A stretch of 10,487 bases of DNA from the NCBI GenBank assembly GCA_031372065.1, contig JANMKN010000159.1:1-10487 (forward strand), in the 5' to 3' direction. The notes under the pieces were generated by a model, which made no database searches, was not told where the DNA came from, and was given only the letters and a program-made list of their open reading frames with translations. How positions within the stretch are numbered: position 1 is the first letter of the stretch; the number at the start of each line of letters is the position of its first letter. Origin of the DNA: Abditibacteriaceae bacterium (GTDB lineage: Bacteria > Armatimonadota > Abditibacteriia > Abditibacteriales > Abditibacteriaceae). A program made the position numbers and the translations under genes. This document shows, in pieces, positions 80 to 10,487 of this stretch.

Positions 80-106
80 GAGCCGCAGCGCGGCTCTTTT
101 ATCTTT
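80..106 (+). terminator. GC-rich hairpin; intrinsic-terminator-like on + strand, or 3' stabilising hairpin for the transglutaminase mRNA
   Basis: GAGCCGC(80-86)-AGC-GCGGCTC(90-96) followed by TTTTATCTTT on +. It lies 8 nt past the TAA of the minus-strand CDS but has no U-tract in that direction. Confidence 0.5.
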
Positions 107-953
107 ACGCCAGAGAAATAGCTTGCGTGGTGTATTGCGGCGGGAGGTTCCGCGTTTGCATGGTGATCTCCATGTCTTGAAATTCTATGCCGCCAAACAT
201 GGTGGCGAACGAAACATCGGCGGCATCGCGTCCGCTGCCAATCAAAACATAGCCGGTTTGCGGTGTCATTCGCGTGGCGTCGAAGAAATACCACGCGCCG
301 CCCCTTTCATTGCCCAAATAGGCTTCAAAACAAGCATGAAAATCCGGCGGATTCAAGCCATAAGCGTAGCCTGAAACAAAACGTGCCGGAACGTTGAGGG
401 CGCGGCACAAAGTTATGCCCAAATGAGCGAAATCGCGACACACACCAGCGCGCTCTGTGATGGTGTCGAAGGCCGATGTGTGCGTGCCGCTGCTGCCGTA
501 TTCGTAAGTTATGTTCTGGTGAATATAATTGCAAATCGCCGTCACGCGCGGGAAGCCCGGCGAAAAGTAGCGGAACTCATTGTTCGCCAAGCGCACCAAG
601 CGGTCACTTTCGCAGTAGCGACTCGGATACAAAAAAGGCACCACGTTAAAGGGCAGCGCCGCCGATTGAATCTCACCAATGGAAGTGACATCTACAAGGC
701 GCGGACGGCTTTCGATCTCGGCGCCGTAATTGACTTCCAGTGGCCCCGATTTGGCATTCACGCGCACAAAACGGTTTTGCGTTGCCGGATCAATCCATTC
801 TTCACACAAAGCGGTGCTCTGCGCGCCTTGCGTGGCGCGAAAGTTTTCGCTGAGAACCTGCTGATTGCCACAATGAATGGCATGGACGTTAAAAATAATG
901 GTGCCCGGCGCGTTTAAAGAGTAACGCAGTCGGCACCCGACAGAAAAATGCAT
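105..953 (-). CDS. Transglutaminase-like (cysteine protease superfamily) protein, 282 aa
   Basis: Triad motifs GVCRDFAH (Cys), PPDFHA (His) and FFDAT (Asp), plus family motifs LYPSRYCESD and GRDAADV. Start moved from 1094 to ATG 953 (AAGGA at 958-962), which avoids overlap with the upstream gene. Confidence 0.92.
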   Translation of the reverse strand: MHFSVGCRLRYSLNAPGTIIFNVHAIHCGNQQVLSENFRATQGAQSTALCEEWIDPATQNRFVRVNAKSGPLEVNYGAEIESRPRLVDVTSIGEIQSAALPFNVVPFLYPSRYCESDRLVRLANNEFRYFSPGFPRVTAICNYIHQNITYEYGSSGTHTSAFDTITERAGVCRDFAHLGITLCRALNVPARFVSGYAYGLNPPDFHACFEAYLGNERGGAWYFFDATRMTPQTGYVLIGSGRDAADVSFATMFGGIEFQDMEITMQTRNLPPQYTTQAISLA

Positions 954-978: not shown

Positions 979-1947
979 TTAGGAGACAGGCGGTGGAAAA
1001 GTGGCCGAGCCGGCATCCGGTGGCGGCGGATTGCCCCCCGGTGGCGGCGGATTTGGGGCCGCTGAAGTCGGCGCCGCGCCAGTGGCCGCCGCATCTTGCG
1101 AACTCGTGGGCGCCCTTGGCGGCTCCGCTGTTTCGCCGGGTTTGAGAGGATTCACGGGCGGATTGGCAGATGGATTTACCGGCGTTGTTGTTTGGTCTAC
1201 GGGAGCCGGTTGCGGCAGCGTTGCGACTTTGGCTTGCCAGAATTGATCAATGGGCGCTTTGAGGGCTTGCCGCACCGTGCCATCGGCGAAGACTACATTG
1301 TTGCCGCGCGAGTGGGCGGGCGGATTTAGCCACATCAGTTGCGTGCCGCTCAGATTTTTTTCGTCGCCCGTTTCAAAAAACGCGATCAGCGAGCCGGAAT
1401 TATTGAGATGAGAAAGCGGTGCCTCGCTCATGCCCAAATTGAAGGCATAACCGATGTGGCCGGGGCGCGACGGGCATTCCAAAGCTTTGCGGTCGGGCAC
1501 ATAACGCAGTAGGAGTGTCGGCCAATCGTCGGCTGTGGGAGCGTGTCCCTCGTTGTCCTGCGCGTAAGCCTGCATCGCCATCGCGAGATTCTTGAGATTG
1601 CTTTGGCATCCGGTGAATTGTGCCCGCTTTTTCAGCGTCAGAAAGATGGGAATCCACACTATAACCAACACGCCAAGGGCAACGCCCAACATTCCCGTGG
1701 AAAGCGTGGGACGCTTTTTAAGAACTGCTGGGATAAAGTCTGTGTCCGGCTCGACGCGAATGCCCGCGATGCGTTCGTGACCGCGATCGGGGTGCAATTC
1801 CAGCCCACAATCGCTGCAATGCTCGGCATCGCTGGGATTATCGGCATTGCAACGCGGACAAATAGTGCGCAATTCGGCGCCGCACTTCTTGCAGTAAGTC
1901 AGTTGCTCTTCGGGAGGATTATTTGTTCCGCAATTGGGGCACCGCAC
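979..1947 (-). CDS. Double zinc ribbon + single TM + DUF1559-like/H-X9-DG pilin-associated domain protein with Pro-rich tail, 322 aa
   Basis: GTG start with GGAG at 1956-1959. Four CxxC pairs (CPNC, CKKC, CPRC, CSDC), TM MLGVALGVLVIVWIPIFL, then CQSNLKNLAMAMQAYAQD, ECPS, YAFN and HSRGNNVVFADG (H-X9-DG). Confidence 0.85.
   Translation of the reverse strand: MRCPNCGTNNPPEEQLTYCKKCGAELRTICPRCNADNPSDAEHCSDCGLELHPDRGHERIAGIRVEPDTDFIPAVLKKRPTLSTGMLGVALGVLVIVWIPIFLTLKKRAQFTGCQSNLKNLAMAMQAYAQDNEGHAPTADDWPTLLLRYVPDRKALECPSRPGHIGYAFNLGMSEAPLSHLNNSGSLIAFFETGDEKNLSGTQLMWLNPPAHSRGNNVVFADGTVRQALKAPIDQFWQAKVATLPQPAPVDQTTTPVNPSANPPVNPLKPGETAEPPRAPTSSQDAAATGAAPTSAAPNPPPPGGNPPPPDAGSATFPPPVS
1017..1053. repeat. 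16-bp direct repeat (CCGGTGGCGGCGGATT x2, 21-nt period) encoding NPPPP units
   Basis: Identical copies at 1017-1032 and 1038-1053. Confidence 0.8.
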
Positions 1948-2109: not shown

Positions 2110-2224
2110 CCTCTCCCCTCCGGGGAGAGGTTAGGTGAGGGGCACGAGGTCGCTTGCGACCTCTTCCGATGCGAGAAACCCCTCACCCCAACCCTCTCCC
2201 CCAACCGCTGCGCTGGGGAGAGGG
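2110..2224. repeat. Composite REP-like palindromic element: two inverted units around a central hairpin
   Basis: CCTCTCCCC-TCC-GGGGAGAGG-TTAGGTGAGGGG (2110-2142); GAGGTCGC-TT-GCGACCTC (2146-2163); CCCCTCACCCCAA-CCCTCTCCCC-13 nt-GGGGAGAGGG (2179-2224). Confidence 0.85.
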
Positions 2225-3571
2225 AGGACTTGCCAAACTGATTCTTAGAATCATAGGCGATGCCGTTCCCAAAGCGCGCTGCAATTGATCGTCGGCATTA
2301 TTCCAATCGAACAAAGCACGCACGCGGTTGCCTTGGGCGCGGGTCAGAGCAGCCAAAGCGTCCAATACCTCGGCATTAGTGCCGCGCCCCGATTCGTAGC
2401 GCAATCCGGCCAGATGATAATTCTCCTGCGCGGCCTTTTGCGCCGCCTCTGCCGTGGCGATGTTCTTTTCGGCGGCTTGCTTTGTCGTCAATGCGGTTTG
2501 CACTTCGCGTTCGATTTGCAAATGGAGGCGTTCTATTTCGGCCTGCGCGCGATTTTGCGCGGCGCGGGCTTCGCTTTCCTGTGCGCGACGCAAACCTCCC
2601 GTCGAAAGCGGAATGCCGATGACCACGCCGGCCATCGCGCCACCCATCGAACTGCTGCGTTGCACTCCCAAATCGCCCATCGCCATCGCCGCGATTTGCG
2701 GGCGATAACTGCCGCGCGTAGCTTGCAGATTCTGTCCCGCGCTGGCGATGCGTTGTTGTGCCGCCTGCAATTCCGGGCGCTGATTTTTGGCTTGAGTCAG
2801 CAGATCGTTCAACTCCGGCGCGCTTTGCGGCGTGAAACTTAACGTATCCGCCACCGTAATTTGCGATTGCGGCGCGAGTCCCAAGGTGGCGCGCAATTGA
2901 ATCAAGGCGATGTCCACATCACGCTGCGCATCGGTAACGTTTTGCGCGGCATCGGCGTCTTCGGCTTCGTCACGCAACACATAAAGCTGCGGAATGCGGC
3001 CCGCTTCCAACGCGGCCCGGTCAATGCGCAGTCGTTCGGTTGTGGACTTCTGGCGTTCCTCGGCCACGCGCCGCATTTCTTGCGCGAGCAGCGCCTGCCG
3101 GTAAATGTTTTTCGTTTCCAACACCAAATCTTGCCGCACCGTTTGCTTGTCAGCTTCCGAGGCACCGCGCGCGGCTTGCGCTTGTTTCACCAATGCCGAA
3201 AGGCGCCCGCCCGTTTTCAGCGGCAACATCAGCATGACGTTCTGCCCGGCAAAGGCGCCGCGCGGGAGCAGCGTGATATTCGTCGGCATGACCGGCGCGG
3301 GCGTGGTCAGAATCGCGCCTTCGCTGCCTGCGGAAAGAAATGTCGTCGCTGAAACTTGCGGCTTCTTCGCCGCTTTTGCCGCCTGCACTTGCGCCTGCGC
3401 CATTTCCACTTCGGCCTGCGCGCCGCGCACAACGGGGCTTTCCCGCAAACCAATTTCAATCGCTTCATTTAGCGTCAACGCGCGATTGATAACCGGGCGC
3501 GTTTCATCGGCTTTTGCGCTCCCTAAGGTCGCGGCAAGCAAGCCGCAAAATACAAAGTTAAATCGTTTCAT
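2183..3571 (-). CDS. TolC-family outer membrane efflux protein, 462 aa
   Basis: Signal peptide MKRFNFVFCGLLAATLGSAKA, LTLNEAIEIGLRESP N-terminal motif, two OEP-like helical halves (LEAGRIPQLYVL; RYESGRGTNAEVLDA). Overlaps the RND gene end by 14 nt. Confidence 0.93.
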   Translation of the reverse strand: MKRFNFVFCGLLAATLGSAKADETRPVINRALTLNEAIEIGLRESPVVRGAQAEVEMAQAQVQAAKAAKKPQVSATTFLSAGSEGAILTTPAPVMPTNITLLPRGAFAGQNVMLMLPLKTGGRLSALVKQAQAARGASEADKQTVRQDLVLETKNIYRQALLAQEMRRVAEERQKSTTERLRIDRAALEAGRIPQLYVLRDEAEDADAAQNVTDAQRDVDIALIQLRATLGLAPQSQITVADTLSFTPQSAPELNDLLTQAKNQRPELQAAQQRIASAGQNLQATRGSYRPQIAAMAMGDLGVQRSSSMGGAMAGVVIGIPLSTGGLRRAQESEARAAQNRAQAEIERLHLQIEREVQTALTTKQAAEKNIATAEAAQKAAQENYHLAGLRYESGRGTNAEVLDALAALTRAQGNRVRALFDWNNADDQLQRALGTASPMILRISLASPPSPQRSGWGRGLG

Positions 3572-6500
3572 GAGTGCCTTCCACTTCGTCCGGCGCCTGC
3601 CATTGCCAATCGCGCTTGAGGAATGTTTTGTTCAGCCAACGGATGAAATCGTCCACATAGGTGTGCATGATGGGAATGTCAATGAGGCTCAAAATTGTGC
3701 CCACCAAAAGGCCGCCCAAAATGGTTGTGCCCAGCGGTTGATAAGCATCGAGGCCGGTTTTCGGAAAAAACGCGACGGGAATCATCACGATAATCGTGAT
3801 AAGGCTGGTCATCAAAATCGGGCGCAAGCGTTGCGGGCAGGCGCGGCGAATCGCTTCATCGCGTGGCACACCTTTATCACGCTGGCGCATGATGTTATCA
3901 ATCATCAAAATCGCTGCCGTGATGTCCATGCCGGTTAAAACAATGATCGCCATGATGGAAACCGTCGAAAACGCTTGTCCTGTCAGCCACAATGCGGTAA
4001 AAACGCCCGCCAATTCCAAAGGCAAACTGGCGATCATTTGCAGCGGCTGCAAGAAGCCGCGAAATTGCGCGACCAGAACTAAATACATGAAAATAATCGC
4101 CAGCAGCAAACCGTAAAGCAGGCGCCGAAACGAATCCATCATCTGCGTCATGTCGCCGCGCATTTCGATGCCATAGCCGGGCGGAAAATTCAGCTTTCCC
4201 ATCGCTTTCATCATCACTTCCATGCCGACATCCATCGAAGGCAAATGCCCTTGCCGGTAGTAGCCCGCGACGCCGATAACACGCCGCAAATTATCGTGTT
4301 CGATGACCGAGGGCGCGTGGCGAAATTCGATGTGTGCCACGCTTTTCAAGGGAATTTGCTGGCCGCTTTTGGTGGTGATGAAGAGGTTTTGCAAGTCTTC
4401 TTCGGTGCGCCGGTCACGCGGTTCATAGCGCAGCGAAATGGTATTTTGCCGCAAGTTCGGCAAGCGATAAAATTCGTCGGTGAGGCCACCACGCAGGGCA
4501 TAATAGGCTTGCCCCGAAATCTCTTCGGGCGTGAGGCCCACTTCCTGTGCGCGGCGCCCGTCCACTTTGATAATGTAATTCGGCACGCCCATCGTCGAAG
4601 TCAAAGCGGGCTGGAAAAAGTTACCCTGAATCGTCGCGTCGGTGCGCGCCAATTCCATTGTTTGCTGACCGAGTTGGTTCAGCACGTTCAAGTCTTTGCC
4701 ATAAATAACCAAGTGAATCGGCGCGGCGGCTGTCGCCATCACATCGCTGCCCATTTCTTTGATTTGCAAGCGCCGCAAGCCCGGAATGGTGGCTTTGGCT
4801 TCGGTTTGGATGGCATCAATCACTTGCCAGATGGTGCGCCCTCTCATTTCCTTGTCGGAAAACGTCAGCATCATGCTGGCGGCAAACGGGCTGGGCATTT
4901 GGTAGCCGGTGAAATACGGATTCCACGACTCCATCATGGTTTCCTGTCCGATTTCCAGCGAAGCGCGTTCGAGTTCGGAATGCTTCAGCATGATTTTTTC
5001 GAGGCGCTGCGCGGCGCGTTCGGTTTCCGAAAACGAGGTGCCCGGTTGCATTTCCATAAAACCGTTTGCTTGCCCCACATCGGCGAGCGGCATCATTTCA
5101 CTGCCGATGAACCAATAAAACGTAAAGCCGATTATCAGCGTTGCCAGCACGCGTGTGAAGTTGGCGAAACGATGCTTTAGCAGCCAACCAATCAAGTGAG
5201 CGTAACGATTTTCAAGTCGCACAAGGCCGCGCTGAAACGGGTCAACAAGCACATAAATCCATTTCAAAAACGGATGTTTTCTGTCGGCGTCGCGGGCACT
5301 TTCGGGGCGCAACCATTTGGCGCAAAGCAGGGCGGTCAGCGTGAAGGAAACTAACATCGAAGCCAACAAAGCGAAGATAATCGGCCACACCAATTCGACG
5401 AACATCAGTTGCGTGATGCCGCCGCAAAAGAGCAGTGGCGACAAGGCCAAAACCAGCATCAGCGTGGACGAAATCACCGCCAAACGCACTTCGGCAATGC
5501 CGTCAATGGTGGCGCTTTTCGGGTCTTTACCGAGGCGCAGATGATGTTCAACCGAGTGAATATCTATGATGGTGTCGTCTACAAGGCGCCCAATGGAAAG
5601 CAAGAGGCCAATCAGCGTGCCGGAATTAAACGTCATGCCAAACGGCACCATTGCGACAATCGCTAAGGCCAGCGAAGCGGGAATGGTAATCAGGCAAATA
5701 AGCGTGCCGCGCCATTCGCCGAGAAAGAATAAAACCGCAAGGCCGCACAGCACAATCGCCACGCCGAGTTCGTGCCAGACGTTTTCAAAAAGAATGTCCA
5801 CAAACTTTTTGTTGTCATAAGCTGCCTCGAATTTGACGCCGGGATTTTCGCGCTCTAAAGCGCGCGCTACTTTCATCACGGCGGGCACCACATAAGCCGA
5901 ACTGGCGCCCGGATTTTGAATAATCGAAACCTCAACGGCGCTTTTACTTTCGCCTTTTGTGCCCGGCTGATGGTTCAAAAAACGATAGGCGCTGCGCCGC
6001 TCCCAATAGCCATCCAGCACGCGCGCCACATCGCGGATATAAAGGACTTTTGGGGATTGAATGTTGGGTGTTGGGGTCTGAGAATTGGTCGTCGCAAGCG
6101 GATAATCCAAAATGTCTTCGGCGCGCAGAGCGCGATTGTCCACGCGCACGATGGCTTCGCGGTCACTGGTGGTGAGATTGCCCGCCGGACGGCTAACATT
6201 CTGTTCATCAAGGGCCTTTTTCACATCAAGAATCGAAAGATTGTAAGCCGCCAATTTTTCGCGGTCAACAATCACTTGCATTTGCCGCCGGAAGCCACCA
6301 AAAGGCACCACAGAATACACATTAGGCACGGTTTTGAGGCGGTTTTGCACTTCGTTGTCGGCAAACTCCCGCAAGCGTGCCGGAGTCCAACCTTGCGCCG
6401 CATCGCCGGTTAAGGCAAACGACAGCACCGGCAAATTTAGAGAATCAATCGGCACCACCCACGATGGCTTTAAGTTGGCGCCTGTAGACGGCAAATTCGC

Positions 6501-6884
6501 CTGCGCGACATTCAAAAGCGCCTGCACATCAAAGATCGCTTTTTTCATGTCGGTGCCATAGGGAAATTCCAGCGCCACGAGCGAAAAACCATCTTGCGAG
6601 GTTGAGCGAATGGTGCGCAAATTCATTACATTCACCATTTGTTCTTCGATGGGTTTCGAGACTTGCAATTCCATTTCTTCGGCGGATAATCCCGGCATCA
6701 TCGTCACCACGCCGACAATCGGGCTTTCCACATAAGGCGCAAAACGGCGCGGCAGAATTGAAGTGACGGCGATGATGGCCAGCACCACCGCCGCGACGTA
6801 AAACGCGATGACAACATAAGGATGTTCGATGCTCCATTGATGAATTAGATGAAGCGGATTGCGTTTGGGCGAGGCCGGTTTCAT
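3558..6884 (-). CDS. RND efflux permease (AcrB/CusA superfamily), Met-rich, probable Cu/Ag exporter, 1108 aa
   Basis: PGLSAEEMELQVSKPIEEQM, TM4 IGRLVDD, RLRPILMTS and typical RND TM layout. Start set at ATG 6884, which forms an ATGA overlap with the MFP stop. Substrate is inferred, not shown. Confidence 0.95.
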   Translation of the reverse strand: MKPASPKRNPLHLIHQWSIEHPYVVIAFYVAAVVLAIIAVTSILPRRFAPYVESPIVGVVTMMPGLSAEEMELQVSKPIEEQMVNVMNLRTIRSTSQDGFSLVALEFPYGTDMKKAIFDVQALLNVAQANLPSTGANLKPSWVVPIDSLNLPVLSFALTGDAAQGWTPARLREFADNEVQNRLKTVPNVYSVVPFGGFRRQMQVIVDREKLAAYNLSILDVKKALDEQNVSRPAGNLTTSDREAIVRVDNRALRAEDILDYPLATTNSQTPTPNIQSPKVLYIRDVARVLDGYWERRSAYRFLNHQPGTKGESKSAVEVSIIQNPGASSAYVVPAVMKVARALERENPGVKFEAAYDNKKFVDILFENVWHELGVAIVLCGLAVLFFLGEWRGTLICLITIPASLALAIVAMVPFGMTFNSGTLIGLLLSIGRLVDDTIIDIHSVEHHLRLGKDPKSATIDGIAEVRLAVISSTLMLVLALSPLLFCGGITQLMFVELVWPIIFALLASMLVSFTLTALLCAKWLRPESARDADRKHPFLKWIYVLVDPFQRGLVRLENRYAHLIGWLLKHRFANFTRVLATLIIGFTFYWFIGSEMMPLADVGQANGFMEMQPGTSFSETERAAQRLEKIMLKHSELERASLEIGQETMMESWNPYFTGYQMPSPFAASMMLTFSDKEMRGRTIWQVIDAIQTEAKATIPGLRRLQIKEMGSDVMATAAAPIHLVIYGKDLNVLNQLGQQTMELARTDATIQGNFFQPALTSTMGVPNYIIKVDGRRAQEVGLTPEEISGQAYYALRGGLTDEFYRLPNLRQNTISLRYEPRDRRTEEDLQNLFITTKSGQQIPLKSVAHIEFRHAPSVIEHDNLRRVIGVAGYYRQGHLPSMDVGMEVMMKAMGKLNFPPGYGIEMRGDMTQMMDSFRRLLYGLLLAIIFMYLVLVAQFRGFLQPLQMIASLPLELAGVFTALWLTGQAFSTVSIMAIIVLTGMDITAAILMIDNIMRQRDKGVPRDEAIRRACPQRLRPILMTSLITIIVMIPVAFFPKTGLDAYQPLGTTILGGLLVGTILSLIDIPIMHTYVDDFIRWLNKTFLKRDWQWQAPDEVEGTHETI
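6047..6088. repeat. Degenerate heptamer tandem array (6 x 7 nt), in frame inside the RND gene
   Basis: + strand CTTTTGG GGATTGA ATGTTGG GTGTTGG GGTCTGA GAATTGG; all units end in TG(G/A). Confidence 0.55.
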
Positions 6885-9313
6885 CGCACGACCACCTGCC
6901 CTTTCATCATGTCCATGCCGCACGCGAACGAAAGCGTTTTTCCACTTTGCGGCGTGAACTCTACCGCTACCGGTTGATTAAGCGGCAATGCTTTTCTGAT
7001 TTTTAAGTCGGGAAAAACCACTTCGGTGCCACAGCCTTCGGCGGCGATGCGCGTGAAGATTAAACGCGCCGGAACGCCCGCTTTTAGCGTGATATTGGGC
7101 AGTGAAAAACCTTGCGCGCTGACGCTGATTTTGATAGTTTGCACGCCACTGCTTGGCGGGCTTCCAGCCCGCTGTTTTGCAGGCTGATTTTCTGCGCTCC
7201 ATAGTGGCTTATCGGGCATCACCGAATCGTGTTCTTTAAGGTTTTCATAACCGCGATAAATCACGCGCGCACCGTCTTTGAGGCCGCTGATTATTTCGGT
7301 GTAATCTCCGTTGGTGACGCCGGTTTTTATGGGCGCTTGATGCGCGCGATAGTGGCCACCCGCCATTAGCGGCGTGAGTTTCATGTGACAGATCGGGCAC
7401 AATCCCGGATGATTTTGCCTGATTTGCGGGTGCATGGTGCAGGTGTAAATGGGGTTTTCCGGTGGCGCGTCTTCCATTGTCCAAACCGTGGCTGTTTGCT
7501 GGGAAGCAATGACTTCGCGGCTTGTATCGGCGCGCCGCACAATCGCAGCGGAAGGCACTTTAAGCGCGCCGAAATTTCGTGACTTGGCGATGTCCATCAC
7601 AATGGCTTCGCCCGGTTTGAAACGATTCTTTTCGTTGGGCGCGACGGCCTCCACAATGCCAAGGCGACTTTGCGCATCGGCGGAGGGAAAAACCGCGCTG
7701 ACGGTGGTTTGCAGGCGCTTTTTCGGGTCGGAAGGCGAGCGCACTTCGACGCTGGCGCCGATTTGAATTTGATCAAGATCGCTTTGCGCCACATTCGCTT
7801 GCAATCGAATCAGGTTGACCTGCTGAATCTTTAAAATCATGCTGCCCGCATTGACAAGTGAACCGGGCGCAACCAGACGCTGCGCCACAATGCCATCGGT
7901 AGCGGCGCGGATTTCGGTGTAGCCACGAATGACGTGCGCTGTTGAAAGCGAGGCTTGCGCTTGCTGGGCCAGCAGCGCGGCGCGGCCTTGTGCCAAGCGC
8001 GCTTTTTCGGCGCCGTGCGAGGCGCCTTGTGCGGCTTGACGGGCGCCCTGTGCAGCAGCGGCGGCTTGTTGGGTTTTGGCCGCCGCCGTGGTAATATCGG
8101 CTTGCATTCGCCGCACGCGTTGCACGGCCATGTCGAGTTCGGCTTTGCGGCCTTGCACTCCCGCTTTGGCGCGTCCGATTTCGGCCTGCATTTGCGTTAC
8201 TTTGGCTTGGGCGCTTTGCACGCGGGCTAAGGCCGCTTCGCGATTGCCTTGCGCCACGCGAATTTTGGCTTGCATTTGCCGCACGCCAGCTTCGCTTTTT
8301 TGCACGCTTGCTTGGGCCGCACGCACATCGTTACTCACTTCGGCCACACGCGAGAGCGCCTGCTTTACTTTGGCATCGGCGCTTTTGGCTGCCGCTTCGT
8401 CCTGCTGAAATTCCTCGCGCGAAATGGCGCCTTGTTTTACAAGTTCTGCCGAGCGCTTGACTTTTTCGCGCGCGAAACTTGCGTCGGCACGCAAGGCTTC
8501 GACTTCCGCCTGCGCCTGTGGCAAGCGCGCTTTGGCGGCGTCCAGCGCGGCGCGTGCATTTTCGACATCGCTGCGCGCATCGTCCAAAGCGGCTCCGGCG
8601 TCTTCGATTTCGGCACTGCGCGTTTGCGCTTCGCGCTCTGCGGCCTGAGCCTCGGCCTGCGCGCCAGTCACGCCGCGCGTTGCCGCGTCTTGTGCGGCCT
8701 GCGCGTCTCGTATGCTGGCGCGGGCCACTTCGATACCGCTGGCCGCTTCGCTCTGCGCCGCTTTGGCAGAGGCCAATTCGCCTTGTGCGACGGGCAAACC
8801 GCCCGCTTCGCGTTTGGCTTCTGTGGCTACGCGCCGCGCTTCGGCTTGTGCCTGTTGTGCTTCGGCGCCTGCCATGAGGCGCTCTTGCGCGGCAGCGGCT
8901 CCCGCGAAGCGCGCTTCGTTTTCGCGCTGGCGCAATTCATCACTATCGAGGCGCGCCAGCAACTGGCCGCGCCGCACTTTGGTGCCGGGATAAACCGGCA
9001 TTTCCACAAGACGCCCTGTTACGCGCGCCGCTATGTCTTGCTCTGTCCAGGCGATAGCCGTGCCGGGATAAGTCACGCGGGCTTCCAAAGTGCCGCGCCG
9101 CGCCGTGACAACTGCAACGGGCAGGGCGCCAATAGGCGGCTTCATCACCGACATATCCATCGCTTGCGCCTCAATGACACTCATTGCGCCCGGACGCCGG
9201 TAATTTTGCACGACATAACGCGCTCCGAAAAAGACTAAAACTAACAGCGCCAAAGTGCCGATAGTGCCCCAGGGCACGCGGCGCGGCGATTCTTCGTGTA
9301 AATCAACGGACAT
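6881..9313 (-). CDS. RND periplasmic adaptor (membrane fusion protein) with very long helical hairpin, heavy-metal-binding domain and C-terminal cupredoxin domain, 810 aa
   Basis: ATG 9313 with SD GGGAGGGG (9320-9327); N-terminal TM; lipoyl halves VYPGTKVRRGQLLARLD and YTEIRAATDGIV; YTCTMHPQI...PGLCPICHMKL; C-terminal GCGTEVVFP...FACGMDMMKG. Confidence 0.93.
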   Translation of the reverse strand: MSVDLHEESPRRVPWGTIGTLALLVLVFFGARYVVQNYRRPGAMSVIEAQAMDMSVMKPPIGALPVAVVTARRGTLEARVTYPGTAIAWTEQDIAARVTGRLVEMPVYPGTKVRRGQLLARLDSDELRQRENEARFAGAAAAQERLMAGAEAQQAQAEARRVATEAKREAGGLPVAQGELASAKAAQSEAASGIEVARASIRDAQAAQDAATRGVTGAQAEAQAAEREAQTRSAEIEDAGAALDDARSDVENARAALDAAKARLPQAQAEVEALRADASFAREKVKRSAELVKQGAISREEFQQDEAAAKSADAKVKQALSRVAEVSNDVRAAQASVQKSEAGVRQMQAKIRVAQGNREAALARVQSAQAKVTQMQAEIGRAKAGVQGRKAELDMAVQRVRRMQADITTAAAKTQQAAAAAQGARQAAQGASHGAEKARLAQGRAALLAQQAQASLSTAHVIRGYTEIRAATDGIVAQRLVAPGSLVNAGSMILKIQQVNLIRLQANVAQSDLDQIQIGASVEVRSPSDPKKRLQTTVSAVFPSADAQSRLGIVEAVAPNEKNRFKPGEAIVMDIAKSRNFGALKVPSAAIVRRADTSREVIASQQTATVWTMEDAPPENPIYTCTMHPQIRQNHPGLCPICHMKLTPLMAGGHYRAHQAPIKTGVTNGDYTEIISGLKDGARVIYRGYENLKEHDSVMPDKPLWSAENQPAKQRAGSPPSSGVQTIKISVSAQGFSLPNITLKAGVPARLIFTRIAAEGCGTEVVFPDLKIRKALPLNQPVAVEFTPQSGKTLSFACGMDMMKGQVVVR

Positions 9314-9319
9314 AGAAGT

Positions 9320-9420
9320 CCCCTCCCAAACAAATACGCAAAAGGCGCGCGACAACAAGCCAGCACGAAAAATAGTGCCGCCTGAACCTTCAGGAAACGA
9401 GCGATTTGTTAAGCGAGAGG
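9320..9420 (-). promoter_or_regulatory. Predicted SD-sequestering mRNA structure between the leader and the MFP gene
   Basis: mRNA CCUCUC-G-CU-U-AACAAAU-CGC (9420-9401) can pair with GCG-U-AUUUGUU-U-GG-GAGGGG (9339-9320), enclosing two small hairpins at 9381-9394 and 9361-9380. Confidence 0.65.
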
Positions 9421-9912
9421 CGGAGCGCGGCCCAGCAAAGTGGGCGGCTCAAGGAGCGAACGAGGCGGAAGAAATAAAGGAGTTGAATAGTCACTTTGGA
9501 CAAAGCCAAGCAAAGGCGATGGCGTTTCAAACGCGGGCAGTGGCCCGCTGGCAACGCTGTGCGCGGCAGCTAAAGAAAGCAGCGACGAAGCGGTTTGACC
9601 ATTGGGCGTTACGGTTTCGCCCGTCAAGCGCACCAATTTGCAACAAGTGCCACCAATATGGGCGCAAACGGGCTTGGGTGAGGCAGTTTGAACTACTTTT
9701 GGACAGCAACAAGAGCGTGGCGCGGCAGTTTTTGTTTTGTCGCATCTGCTACAACGCGGTTTGACGGATGTTTTTGAAGGCGCCGCGCACACGGTGGCGG
9801 CGCTCCCGACGCGCCCTGTCATCGGACACGACCATGCCAATTGCGGTAGTAGCGAAGCTAACATCGCTAACAAAGCCCACAGGGCAATTCTGGGTCGGCG
9901 CCAACGTTTCAT
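9409..9912 (-). CDS. Secreted Cys-rich leader protein with C-terminal RAPP ribosome-arrest motif (DUF2946/CutF/CruR-like architecture), 167 aa
   Basis: ATG 9912 gives a signal peptide (MKRWRRPR, hydrophobic core, AWS/C), 10 Cys (CSRC, CCC, CC and singles), a Pro-rich tail and the ending LLGRAPPLA*. The longer start at 10032 would cross a terminator. Confidence 0.82.
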   Translation of the reverse strand: MKRWRRPRIALWALLAMLASLLPQLAWSCPMTGRVGSAATVCAAPSKTSVKPRCSRCDKTKTAAPRSCCCPKVVQTASPKPVCAHIGGTCCKLVRLTGETVTPNGQTASSLLSLAAAHSVASGPLPAFETPSPLLGFVQSDYSTPLFLPPRSLLEPPTLLGRAPPLA

Positions 9913-9924
9913 GTTTGGTTTAGC

Positions 9925-9948
9925 ACGCCTGCTGTGCAAAGAAGTTCC
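9925..9948 (-). promoter_or_regulatory. Possible ECF-sigma-type promoter upstream of the leader gene
   Basis: GGAAC (9948-9944)-N16-CGT (9927-9925), 12 nt before the ATG; no clear SD. Confidence 0.3.
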
Positions 9949-9951
9949 AGT

Positions 9952-9992
9952 AGAAACAACACAGGCGACGCTTTTAGCATAGCGTCGCCTGT
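9952..9992 (-). terminator. Intrinsic terminator downstream of the DUF1080 gene
   Basis: Perfect 12-bp stem ACAGGCGACGCT (9961-9972)/AGCGTCGCCTGT (9981-9992), 8-nt loop, followed by GTTGTTTCT on the minus strand, about 30 nt after the stop. Confidence 0.75.
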
Positions 9993-10021
9993 AAAAAGAA
10001 GCATCCCTTAATCGGGTGATT

Positions 10022-10487
10022 TTATTTTTCAATCAGCCAGATATTGCGGAAGAAAATTGGGTTGCCATGGTTTTGTAGCACAATCGGCGCGGGCGCGGCG
10101 CCTTCGGGCTTTCCAGCCCCGGTTTTAGCGGTGATTTCGTATTTGTCATGCACTACGACGCCGTTGTGCTTTAAGGTAATCACGGCGTTTTTGATTTTCT
10201 TGTCGCCCTCAAACTGCGCGGCTTGGAAATCAATATCGTAGGTTTGCCACGAAAGCGGCGGGTAATTCATGCTGACAAGGGGCACCTGCTGCTTGTAAAT
10301 TTCGCCGCACAAATCGCCAACGGCGTGTTTGTCGTCGAGTTTGAAGCCAAAGGAATCGAGAATTTGCACTTCGTAGCGGCCTTGAATATAAACGCCGCTG
10401 TTGCCGCGACTTTGACCGCGCGCGGCGGGCTTAAACGGCTCGATAAATTCCAAGTGCAGCGTGAAATTCTTCACATCGCGCTTGGTT
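10022..10487 (-). CDS. DUF1080 (3-keto-disaccharide hydrolase family) protein, 5'-partial
   Basis: Motifs FTLHLEF, RGNSGVY, YEVQILDS, WQTYDI and LQNHGNPIFFRNIW; the frame stays open to the window edge. Confidence 0.92.
   Translation of the reverse strand, partial: TKRDVKNFTLHLEFIEPFKPAARGQSRGNSGVYIQGRYEVQILDSFGFKLDDKHAVGDLCGEIYKQQVPLVSMNYPPLSWQTYDIDFQAAQFEGDKKIKNAVITLKHNGVVVHDKYEITAKTGAGKPEGAAPAPIVLQNHGNPIFFRNIWLIEK

Follow-up and report, generated by a model that had tools for sequence, protein, structure and literature searches.

A RAPP-ended, Cys-rich leader at the head of a probable RND metal-pump operon in Abditibacteriaceae: a likely stall-dependent on-switch

The leader and the pump operon

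The window, by which we mean the whole 10,487-nucleotide stretch of Abditibacteriaceae DNA that was analyzed (contig JANMKN010000159.1 of assembly GCA_031372065.1), carries on its minus strand, in this order, a fragment of a sugar-hydrolase-family gene, a small leader ORF, and genes for a membrane-fusion protein (MFP), an RND permease and a TolC-family protein. The principal features are these:

9960..9993, minus strand: 13-bp terminator-like hairpin; the promoter motif comes just after it
9925..9948, minus strand: GGAAC-N16-CGT, a promoter sequence of ECF-sigma type, 12 nt ahead of the leader's ATG
9409..9912, minus strand: leader ORF, 167 aa by translation, C-terminus LLGRAPPLA followed by the stop
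Leader residues 1-28: signal-like N-terminus (judged from sequence)
Leader residues 29-91: Cys region, followed by a Pro/Ser-rich spacer and the terminal RAPP-L-A
9418..9429, minus strand: RAPP codons CGC GCT CCG CCT, two codons ahead of the stop
6881..9313, minus strand: RND membrane-fusion protein, 810 aa (PF16576, PF19335, PF13473, TIGR01730)
3558..6884, minus strand: RND permease, 1108 aa, Met-rich (PF00873)
2183..3571, minus strand: TolC-family outer membrane factor (PF02321)

The leader ends in a TAA stop codon at 9409-9411 and the MFP ATG sits at 9313, which leaves a gap of 95 nt. Its N-terminus consists of a basic stretch, a hydrophobic helix (residues 7-21 in an AlphaFold model) and an A-W-S site just before Cys29, at which the signal peptide is presumably cleaved; all ten of its Cys lie within residues 29 to 91. 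An earlier note on this DNA had described just this anatomy (signal-like start, 10-Cys region, Pro-rich spacer, RAPP and short gap), and the sequence confirms it throughout. Two other readings of the ORF were considered and dropped: a 207-aa version beginning at an in-frame TTG (10032), because all 8 aligned homologues keep Met1; and, by eye, a lipoprotein, the Trp at -2 of Cys29 being at odds with the lipobox rule.

The leader has no match among Pfam and NCBIfam profiles. Its nearest clusters in the ESM Atlas (0.95) are without names; DUF8199, DUF6769 and a cluster with 23% DUF2946 come up at 0.91-0.92 with low shared-feature counts, as leads only. The AlphaFold model is weak (mean pLDDT 66.6, pTM 0.39), and a Foldseek comparison of it with the PDB returned nothing at E 0.001.

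The pump is more talkative. Its MFP carries an HMBD heavy-metal-binding domain (PF19335, 33.8 bits; cut-off 23.6) and a C-terminal cupredoxin-like domain (PF13473, 47.1 bits; cut-off 27), both above the Pfam cut-off. The permease falls short of the CusA/CzcA profile (TIGR00914, 332.6 bits against a cut-off of 701.45), and its best PDB match is MdtB; 21 of its 47 Met are shared by 12 or more of 13 orthologues, a count made without a control. Among annotated plasmid relatives, cyanobacterial pumps come closest (43-47% identity). Two of these loci (45-47% identity) were inspected: they adjoin genes for a heavy-metal ATPase, cupredoxin, FixH and multicopper oxidase, and no RAPP-ended ORF was found in them, MerR-type or two-component regulators being there instead. 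The MFP domains and the metal-gene context of these cyanobacterial relatives make it likely that the window pump exports copper.

The leader family and the genes that follow it

A single-sequence search with the leader finds two relatives (68% and 42% identity), both ending in GRAPP. A profile built from 8 homologues gathers 79 representatives at a threshold of E 0.001, and 75 of these end in R[A/G/S]PP (RAPP 66, RSPP 8, RGPP 1); conservation of the terminal RAPP among homologues, which the earlier note had proposed for checking, is thereby borne out. The four matches without the motif are two short ones, one of 141 aa and one 925-aa protein. Because the full profile contained RAPP itself, matches were rescored with an N-terminal-only profile: the motif is kept in 61 of the 65 that also pass this one.

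Seven positions (P23, C29, C90, C91, R162, P164, P165) are invariant in 60 aligned near-full-length members, and W27, G33, C42, C83 and G161 are nearly so. Only five Cys (C29, C42, C83, C90, C91) are therefore conserved, and the ten noted earlier, while true of the window protein, are no family trait. CxxC is present in only 5 of the 79 matches; the window's own C54/C57 pair is not conserved and lies more than 100 residues away from RAPP. The spacer before RAPP is poorly conserved, and AlphaFold models it with low confidence. Family members occur in 18 of 26 other Abditibacteriaceae genomes and in none of 4 genomes from other families of the class. The leader gene is genuine and conserved, and belongs to an Abditibacteriaceae family that has not been described before and matches nothing in Pfam.

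What do these leaders precede? Linkage to the pump was sampled in the 18 loci with the best MFP matches, drawn from 40 relatives. A RAPP-ended Cys-rich leader heads the co-oriented run to the pump in 13 of these orthologous loci, which upholds the linkage to efflux genes that had been suggested for examination; three loci (L005, L043, L047) have no leader, and two (L035, L038) are cut by contig ends. Pump leaders in distant genomes have the same anatomy but are not alignable to the window leader.

A separate survey took the next gene after 27 distinct family leaders with a readable downstream gene, with start codons curated manually; five loci had been dropped before this count, four for truncated or broken frames and one for a deleted RBS. 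The MFP follows directly in 5 of the 27. A small secreted protein comes next in about 11 (with the pump further on in L033, L036 and L037), 10 head ORFs of 38-56 aa with 6-12 Cys that resemble secreted metallothioneins, and the remaining one precedes another gene. The metallothionein-like ORFs, most of them with a signal-like start and with CCK(K)-like ends, are located as follows:

L057:6520-6681, plus strand: metallothionein-like ORF
L095:221-388, minus strand: metallothionein-like ORF
L053, L059, L082, L083, L085, L086, L087, L088: further metallothionein-like ORFs after leaders

Two of these ORFs were compared with Pfam and NCBIfam, with zero matches. By their sequences, these peptides behind paralogous leaders look like undescribed ones, and a full-text search of a limited library found no literature joining arrest peptide, metallothionein and RAPP.

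Some observations on individual loci may be added. The first gene after many leaders encodes a secreted protein of 100-117 aa with a four-Cys motif at its end (L056:6544-6858, plus strand, and relatives); Pfam holds no match for it. The leader, MFP and permease of genome G002 (L031/L051) are all broken by frameshifts, likely assembly errors because P0002 is intact. Compared with L036, L039 (L039/L060) lacks both the start of the first gene downstream and its RBS.

The window's own genome has 63,946 stop-ended frames, 45 of which finish in a RAPP-like motif. Picking from these by eye yields four with a signal-like start and Cys, all before metal-handling genes; an additional candidate (C62) led nowhere. 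The three besides the window leader are:

G000:C147:430-942, plus strand: leader before HMA proteins
C329:30031-30519, minus strand: leader before a P1B-ATPase/YHS/cupredoxin/CsoR cluster
C393:12742-13275, plus strand: leader before a CusA/CzcA-like RND; carries both RGPP and RAPP

A predicted helix over the pump's ribosome-binding site

Minimum-free-energy (MFE) folds pair the end of the leader with the start of the pump operon:

9401..9420, minus strand: 5' arm of the predicted helix (last Pro, Leu and Ala codons, stop, next bases)
9322..9339, minus strand: 3' arm of the predicted helix, containing the MFP Shine-Dalgarno sequence

For the window, folding gives about 7.8 expected base pairs linking the stall footprint to the RBS, and with that footprint blocked the calculated cost of opening the RBS falls from 16.3 to 10.8 kcal/mol. 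Pairing of at least 5 expected pairs is predicted in 16 of the 27 loci; in 14, blocking the footprint makes the RBS cheaper to open by 3 kcal/mol or more, a drop that control footprints placed 30 and 60 nt upstream reach in 1 and 0 loci, respectively. Cognate leader-end/RBS duplexes average -13.5 kcal/mol, as against -10.1 for non-cognate ones (0 of 20000 permutations, over 27 loci that as kin are not independent). Pro codons pair with Shine-Dalgarno sequences by nature. Measured against synonymous recoding, 14 of the 27 cognate duplexes stand out at 5%, the window duplex at the 10% level only, and the window fold is not unusually stable (z -0.70).

RNAalifold was applied to nine loci picked for alignability, kin that are not independent and that exclude the window, whose register is different: it finds a 12-bp helix, 92.6% paired and with two compensatory columns, as against 34-58% in slid controls, and 13-23 of 500 shuffles equal the best measures of this alignment. 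A TGA/TAA change of stop codon is compensated on the opposite arm of the helix in the same alignment. The predicted effect of the stall in G002 varies with the flank (15.1 to 7.6 in one case, 11.0 to 10.6 in the other), and footprint-RBS pairing is absent in all six members with spacers of at least 180 nt. The leader's last codons and stop, then, are predicted to mask the MFP ribosome-binding site, and because of this the leader is likely to be a translational on-switch.

How might such a switch work? In the absence of a stall, the last codons and stop would pair with the MFP Shine-Dalgarno sequence and the RBS would be closed. By analogy with RAPP peptides that have been tested, arrest should place Pro164 in the P site, Pro165 occupying the A site (PMC10951233 and PMC12992588 describe this register for such motifs, the P site holding the first Pro of PP; the latter paper also reports RGPP to support arrest and RSPP to be partly permissive); the stalled ribosome would cover most of the helix 5' arm, thus opening the MFP RBS. 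At low metal, Sec pulling and folding of the Cys region would free the stall; periplasmic Cu(I) or a similar soft metal, once bound, would slow its release. The data on which this draws are the family-wide conservation of the N-terminal hydrophobic segment, the five Cys and the terminal RAPP, and the head-of-operon position. Its parts deserve different degrees of trust. Arrest at RAPP is, by analogy, very probable; that the stall opens the MFP RBS is probable; metal as the modulating signal is somewhat favored; and the complete proposal, a CutF-like stall that opens the MFP RBS and is prolonged by metal on the five conserved Cys, is one toward which we lean slightly.

Promoter, known relatives and other readings

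A lone match to GGAAC-N16-CGT in the window is at chance level (0.93 expected); the evidence is the fixed position of the motif family-wide. Of 31 family leaders, 17 have GGAAC-N16/17-(C/T)GT 8-16 nt ahead of their start codon; none of 1000 shuffles yields more than one such leader, and a control region yields 1 of 31. Since the leader ATG has no Shine-Dalgarno sequence before it, the leader mRNA is likely leaderless or endowed with a very short 5' UTR. The hairpin at 9960..9993 likely terminates the upstream sugar-hydrolase-family gene, and a scan of 9200-10200 for sigma-70 promoters found none. If transcription begins at the ECF-type promoter, as it probably does, the operon is under two control layers, and the promoter could even supply all of the signal dependence. 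The earlier note's remark that the window holds no regulator is true of its genes, but overlooks this promoter sequence at 9925-9948. The idea that the leader acts in place of transcriptional control is not supported: the conserved ECF-type promoter and the regulators elsewhere in the genome (one CsoR-family match, three MerR-family matches and Rho) mean that the leader does not replace all such control.

The motif resembles the SigH consensus, given as GGAAYR-N17-GTT in PMC4803200, and a SigH-like ECF sigma adjoins an RsrA-like anti-sigma in the genome, both scoring below cut-off:

G000:C178:10407-11320 (L100:908-1820): SigH-like sigma and RsrA-like anti-sigma, then a thioredoxin-like ORF

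This sigma is a candidate reader of the leader promoter; visual inspection of 13 ECF-like sigmas brought out none with a Cys-rich tail of the CorE type. The motif also lies before the gene of a CopZ-like chaperone, before ORFs read by eye as a putative cysteine synthase and HesB/IscA, and before the RAPP leader of C329 (G000:C83:1458, C369, C262, C329:30540); a shared copper/thiol-stress regulon is possible. These same findings would suit a leader that stalls and gates the RBS while monitoring not metal but periplasmic disulfide folding or Sec export capacity, the stress response coming from the ECF sigma: the conserved, spaced Cys and the want of a CxxC befit disulfides. The genes behind the leaders, however, are for metal handling and not for Sec or Dsb functions, the motif turns up at 260 sites in the genome, a noisy list, and the sigma is a candidate only; we consider this reading unlikely.

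The preferred reading, a stall prolonged by metal, can be extended, doubtfully, to a metal regulon of the whole family: a CxxC-free, copper-sensing leader, with a five-Cys knot directly behind its signal peptide and transcribed near-leaderless from a thiol-stress ECF promoter, would gate an unusual Met-rich RND pump at some loci and undescribed secreted metallothionein-like peptides at others, so that cytoplasmic stress and periplasmic metal would both be needed, as in an AND gate.

Among the nearest described counterparts is CutF of Rhodobacter capsulatus (bioRxiv 2022.11.11.516240 / PMC9973294; bioRxiv 2025.02.05.636593). As described there, CutF shares with the leader its small size, a Sec-type signal, a Cys region, a C-terminal Pro motif and a short spacer with a structure (here predicted) that hides the next RBS, and CutF-like genes most often precede the OEP, ACR_tran and HlyD_D23 genes of RND systems (bioRxiv 2022.11.11.516240). 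The window leader has the signal peptide (judged from sequence), the PP within the last 15 residues and the co-oriented gene less than 1000 nt away by which CutF-like genes are recognized; an RBS-shielding mRNA structure is predicted for it and for 16 of the 27 loci, weakly for the window alone. The differences are that CutF ends in PPP and the leader in RAPP, with no conserved CxxxC or CxxC; that the leader's helix is built from its own last codons and stop; and that the leader has 167 aa where the published survey filtered at 150 aa, several orthologues having 146-149 aa.

CruR (Bp2923) of Bordetella pertussis has, in the accounts of it consulted, the same RAPP a few residues from the stop, an export signal and the first place in a metal operon; it belongs to Pfam DUF2946/PF11162 (PMC9426467), and its arrest is demonstrated in PMC12992588. 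Membership of DUF2946, which the earlier note had invited by way of an HMM search, is not found: the window leader has no match to PF11162 (gathering cut-off 23.7 bits), nor do any of 60 family members or anything in the window's own genome above cut-off, and the spaced CxxC is absent; one of 15 orthologues gives a full-length match at 11.2 bits (E 0.63). CruR has its CxxC 45 residues before RAPP where the family has a conserved CC 70 residues before it, and since the family has no CxxC the sensing site would differ from those of CruR and CutF. CruR is also described as acting on a TonB-dependent importer through Rho termination, whereas the window leader precedes an efflux pump and is predicted to be an RBS switch. 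What stands from the earlier note is a conserved, exported, CruR/CutF-like RAPP leader linked to metal-homeostasis genes (75 of 79 motif ends, 13 of 18 pump loci).

Could the polarity nevertheless be that of CruR (PMC9426467), stalling by default, with metal freeing the stall and the helix and/or Rho then shutting an operon of low-metal genes, for example for cuproprotein supply? CruR, with the same RAPP end, behaves in this way, the genome contains Rho, the helix is missing in long-spacer members, and the helix is compatible with a metal effect in either direction. The targets, however, suit metal excess (a tripartite efflux pump, metallothionein-like peptides and clusters with a P1B-ATPase), which makes this polarity distinctly improbable. 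Least probable is that the leader product, Cys-rich and exported and with its arrest a prediction only, is a plain secreted metal-binding protein, its RAPP and helix reflecting ordinary translational coupling: the terminal RAPP is invariant behind a poorly conserved, low-confidence spacer, the leader is always first in its operon, and RAPP is reported to be depleted from proteomes and to arrest in several contexts (PMC12992588).

The proposed metal-modulated switch would join a class that already exists. SecM, ApdA and ApdP share the RAP/P arrest motif and an export signal, according to PMC10951233, but they precede protein-localisation genes, and no Cys-rich region is described for them there. 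For the target class the earlier note did not know of a characterised example, but the class is not new, since RND-linked RAPP or CutF-like uORFs are already catalogued (PMC12992588, bioRxiv 2022.11.11.516240). The source data of PMC12992588 count 620 RAPP against 148 AAPP uORFs before RND adaptors (16.4-fold), 50 against 7 before CusA/CzcA and 530 against 380 before TolC. These RAPP uORFs have the same architecture and target class; among the rows listed they are mostly His-rich, many of them DUF6769, and neither the leader-family motif nor the name Abditibacterium was found among the uORF rows listed. A limited library yielded no bench-tested RND-linked RAPP leader in the parts of the literature that it covers.

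The leader is, then, likely a lineage-specific, stall-dependent on-switch for a metal pump, of the CutF/CruR type. It opens no new category of regulation; what is new in the family is the predicted stop-spanning anti-RBS helix, the ECF-type promoter and the metallothionein-like targets, together with a Cys signature unlike that of CruR or CutF. With hundreds of RAPP uORFs catalogued before RND pumps, the Abditibacteriaceae leaders offer a compact test case: the spacer is short, the predicted helix shows compensatory changes between relatives, and RSPP/RGPP variants occur naturally. Should they prove metal-dependent, the range of metal sensing by nascent peptides would grow to take in efflux pumps as well as metallothionein-like peptides, in a phylum that has been little studied.

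Minor observations concern the pump's own sequence and its surroundings. The permease has GRLVDD-x-IIDIH in TM4 and GMDIT in a later helix, the latter at a place where the multidrug RNDs of PDB alignments have a Lys; the features are conserved in 13 orthologues, and the subfamily possibly has a distinct proton relay. Downstream of the pump, on the same strand, lie a double zinc-ribbon membrane protein with a DUF1559-like segment (979-1947, minus strand) and a transglutaminase-like gene (105-947, minus strand).
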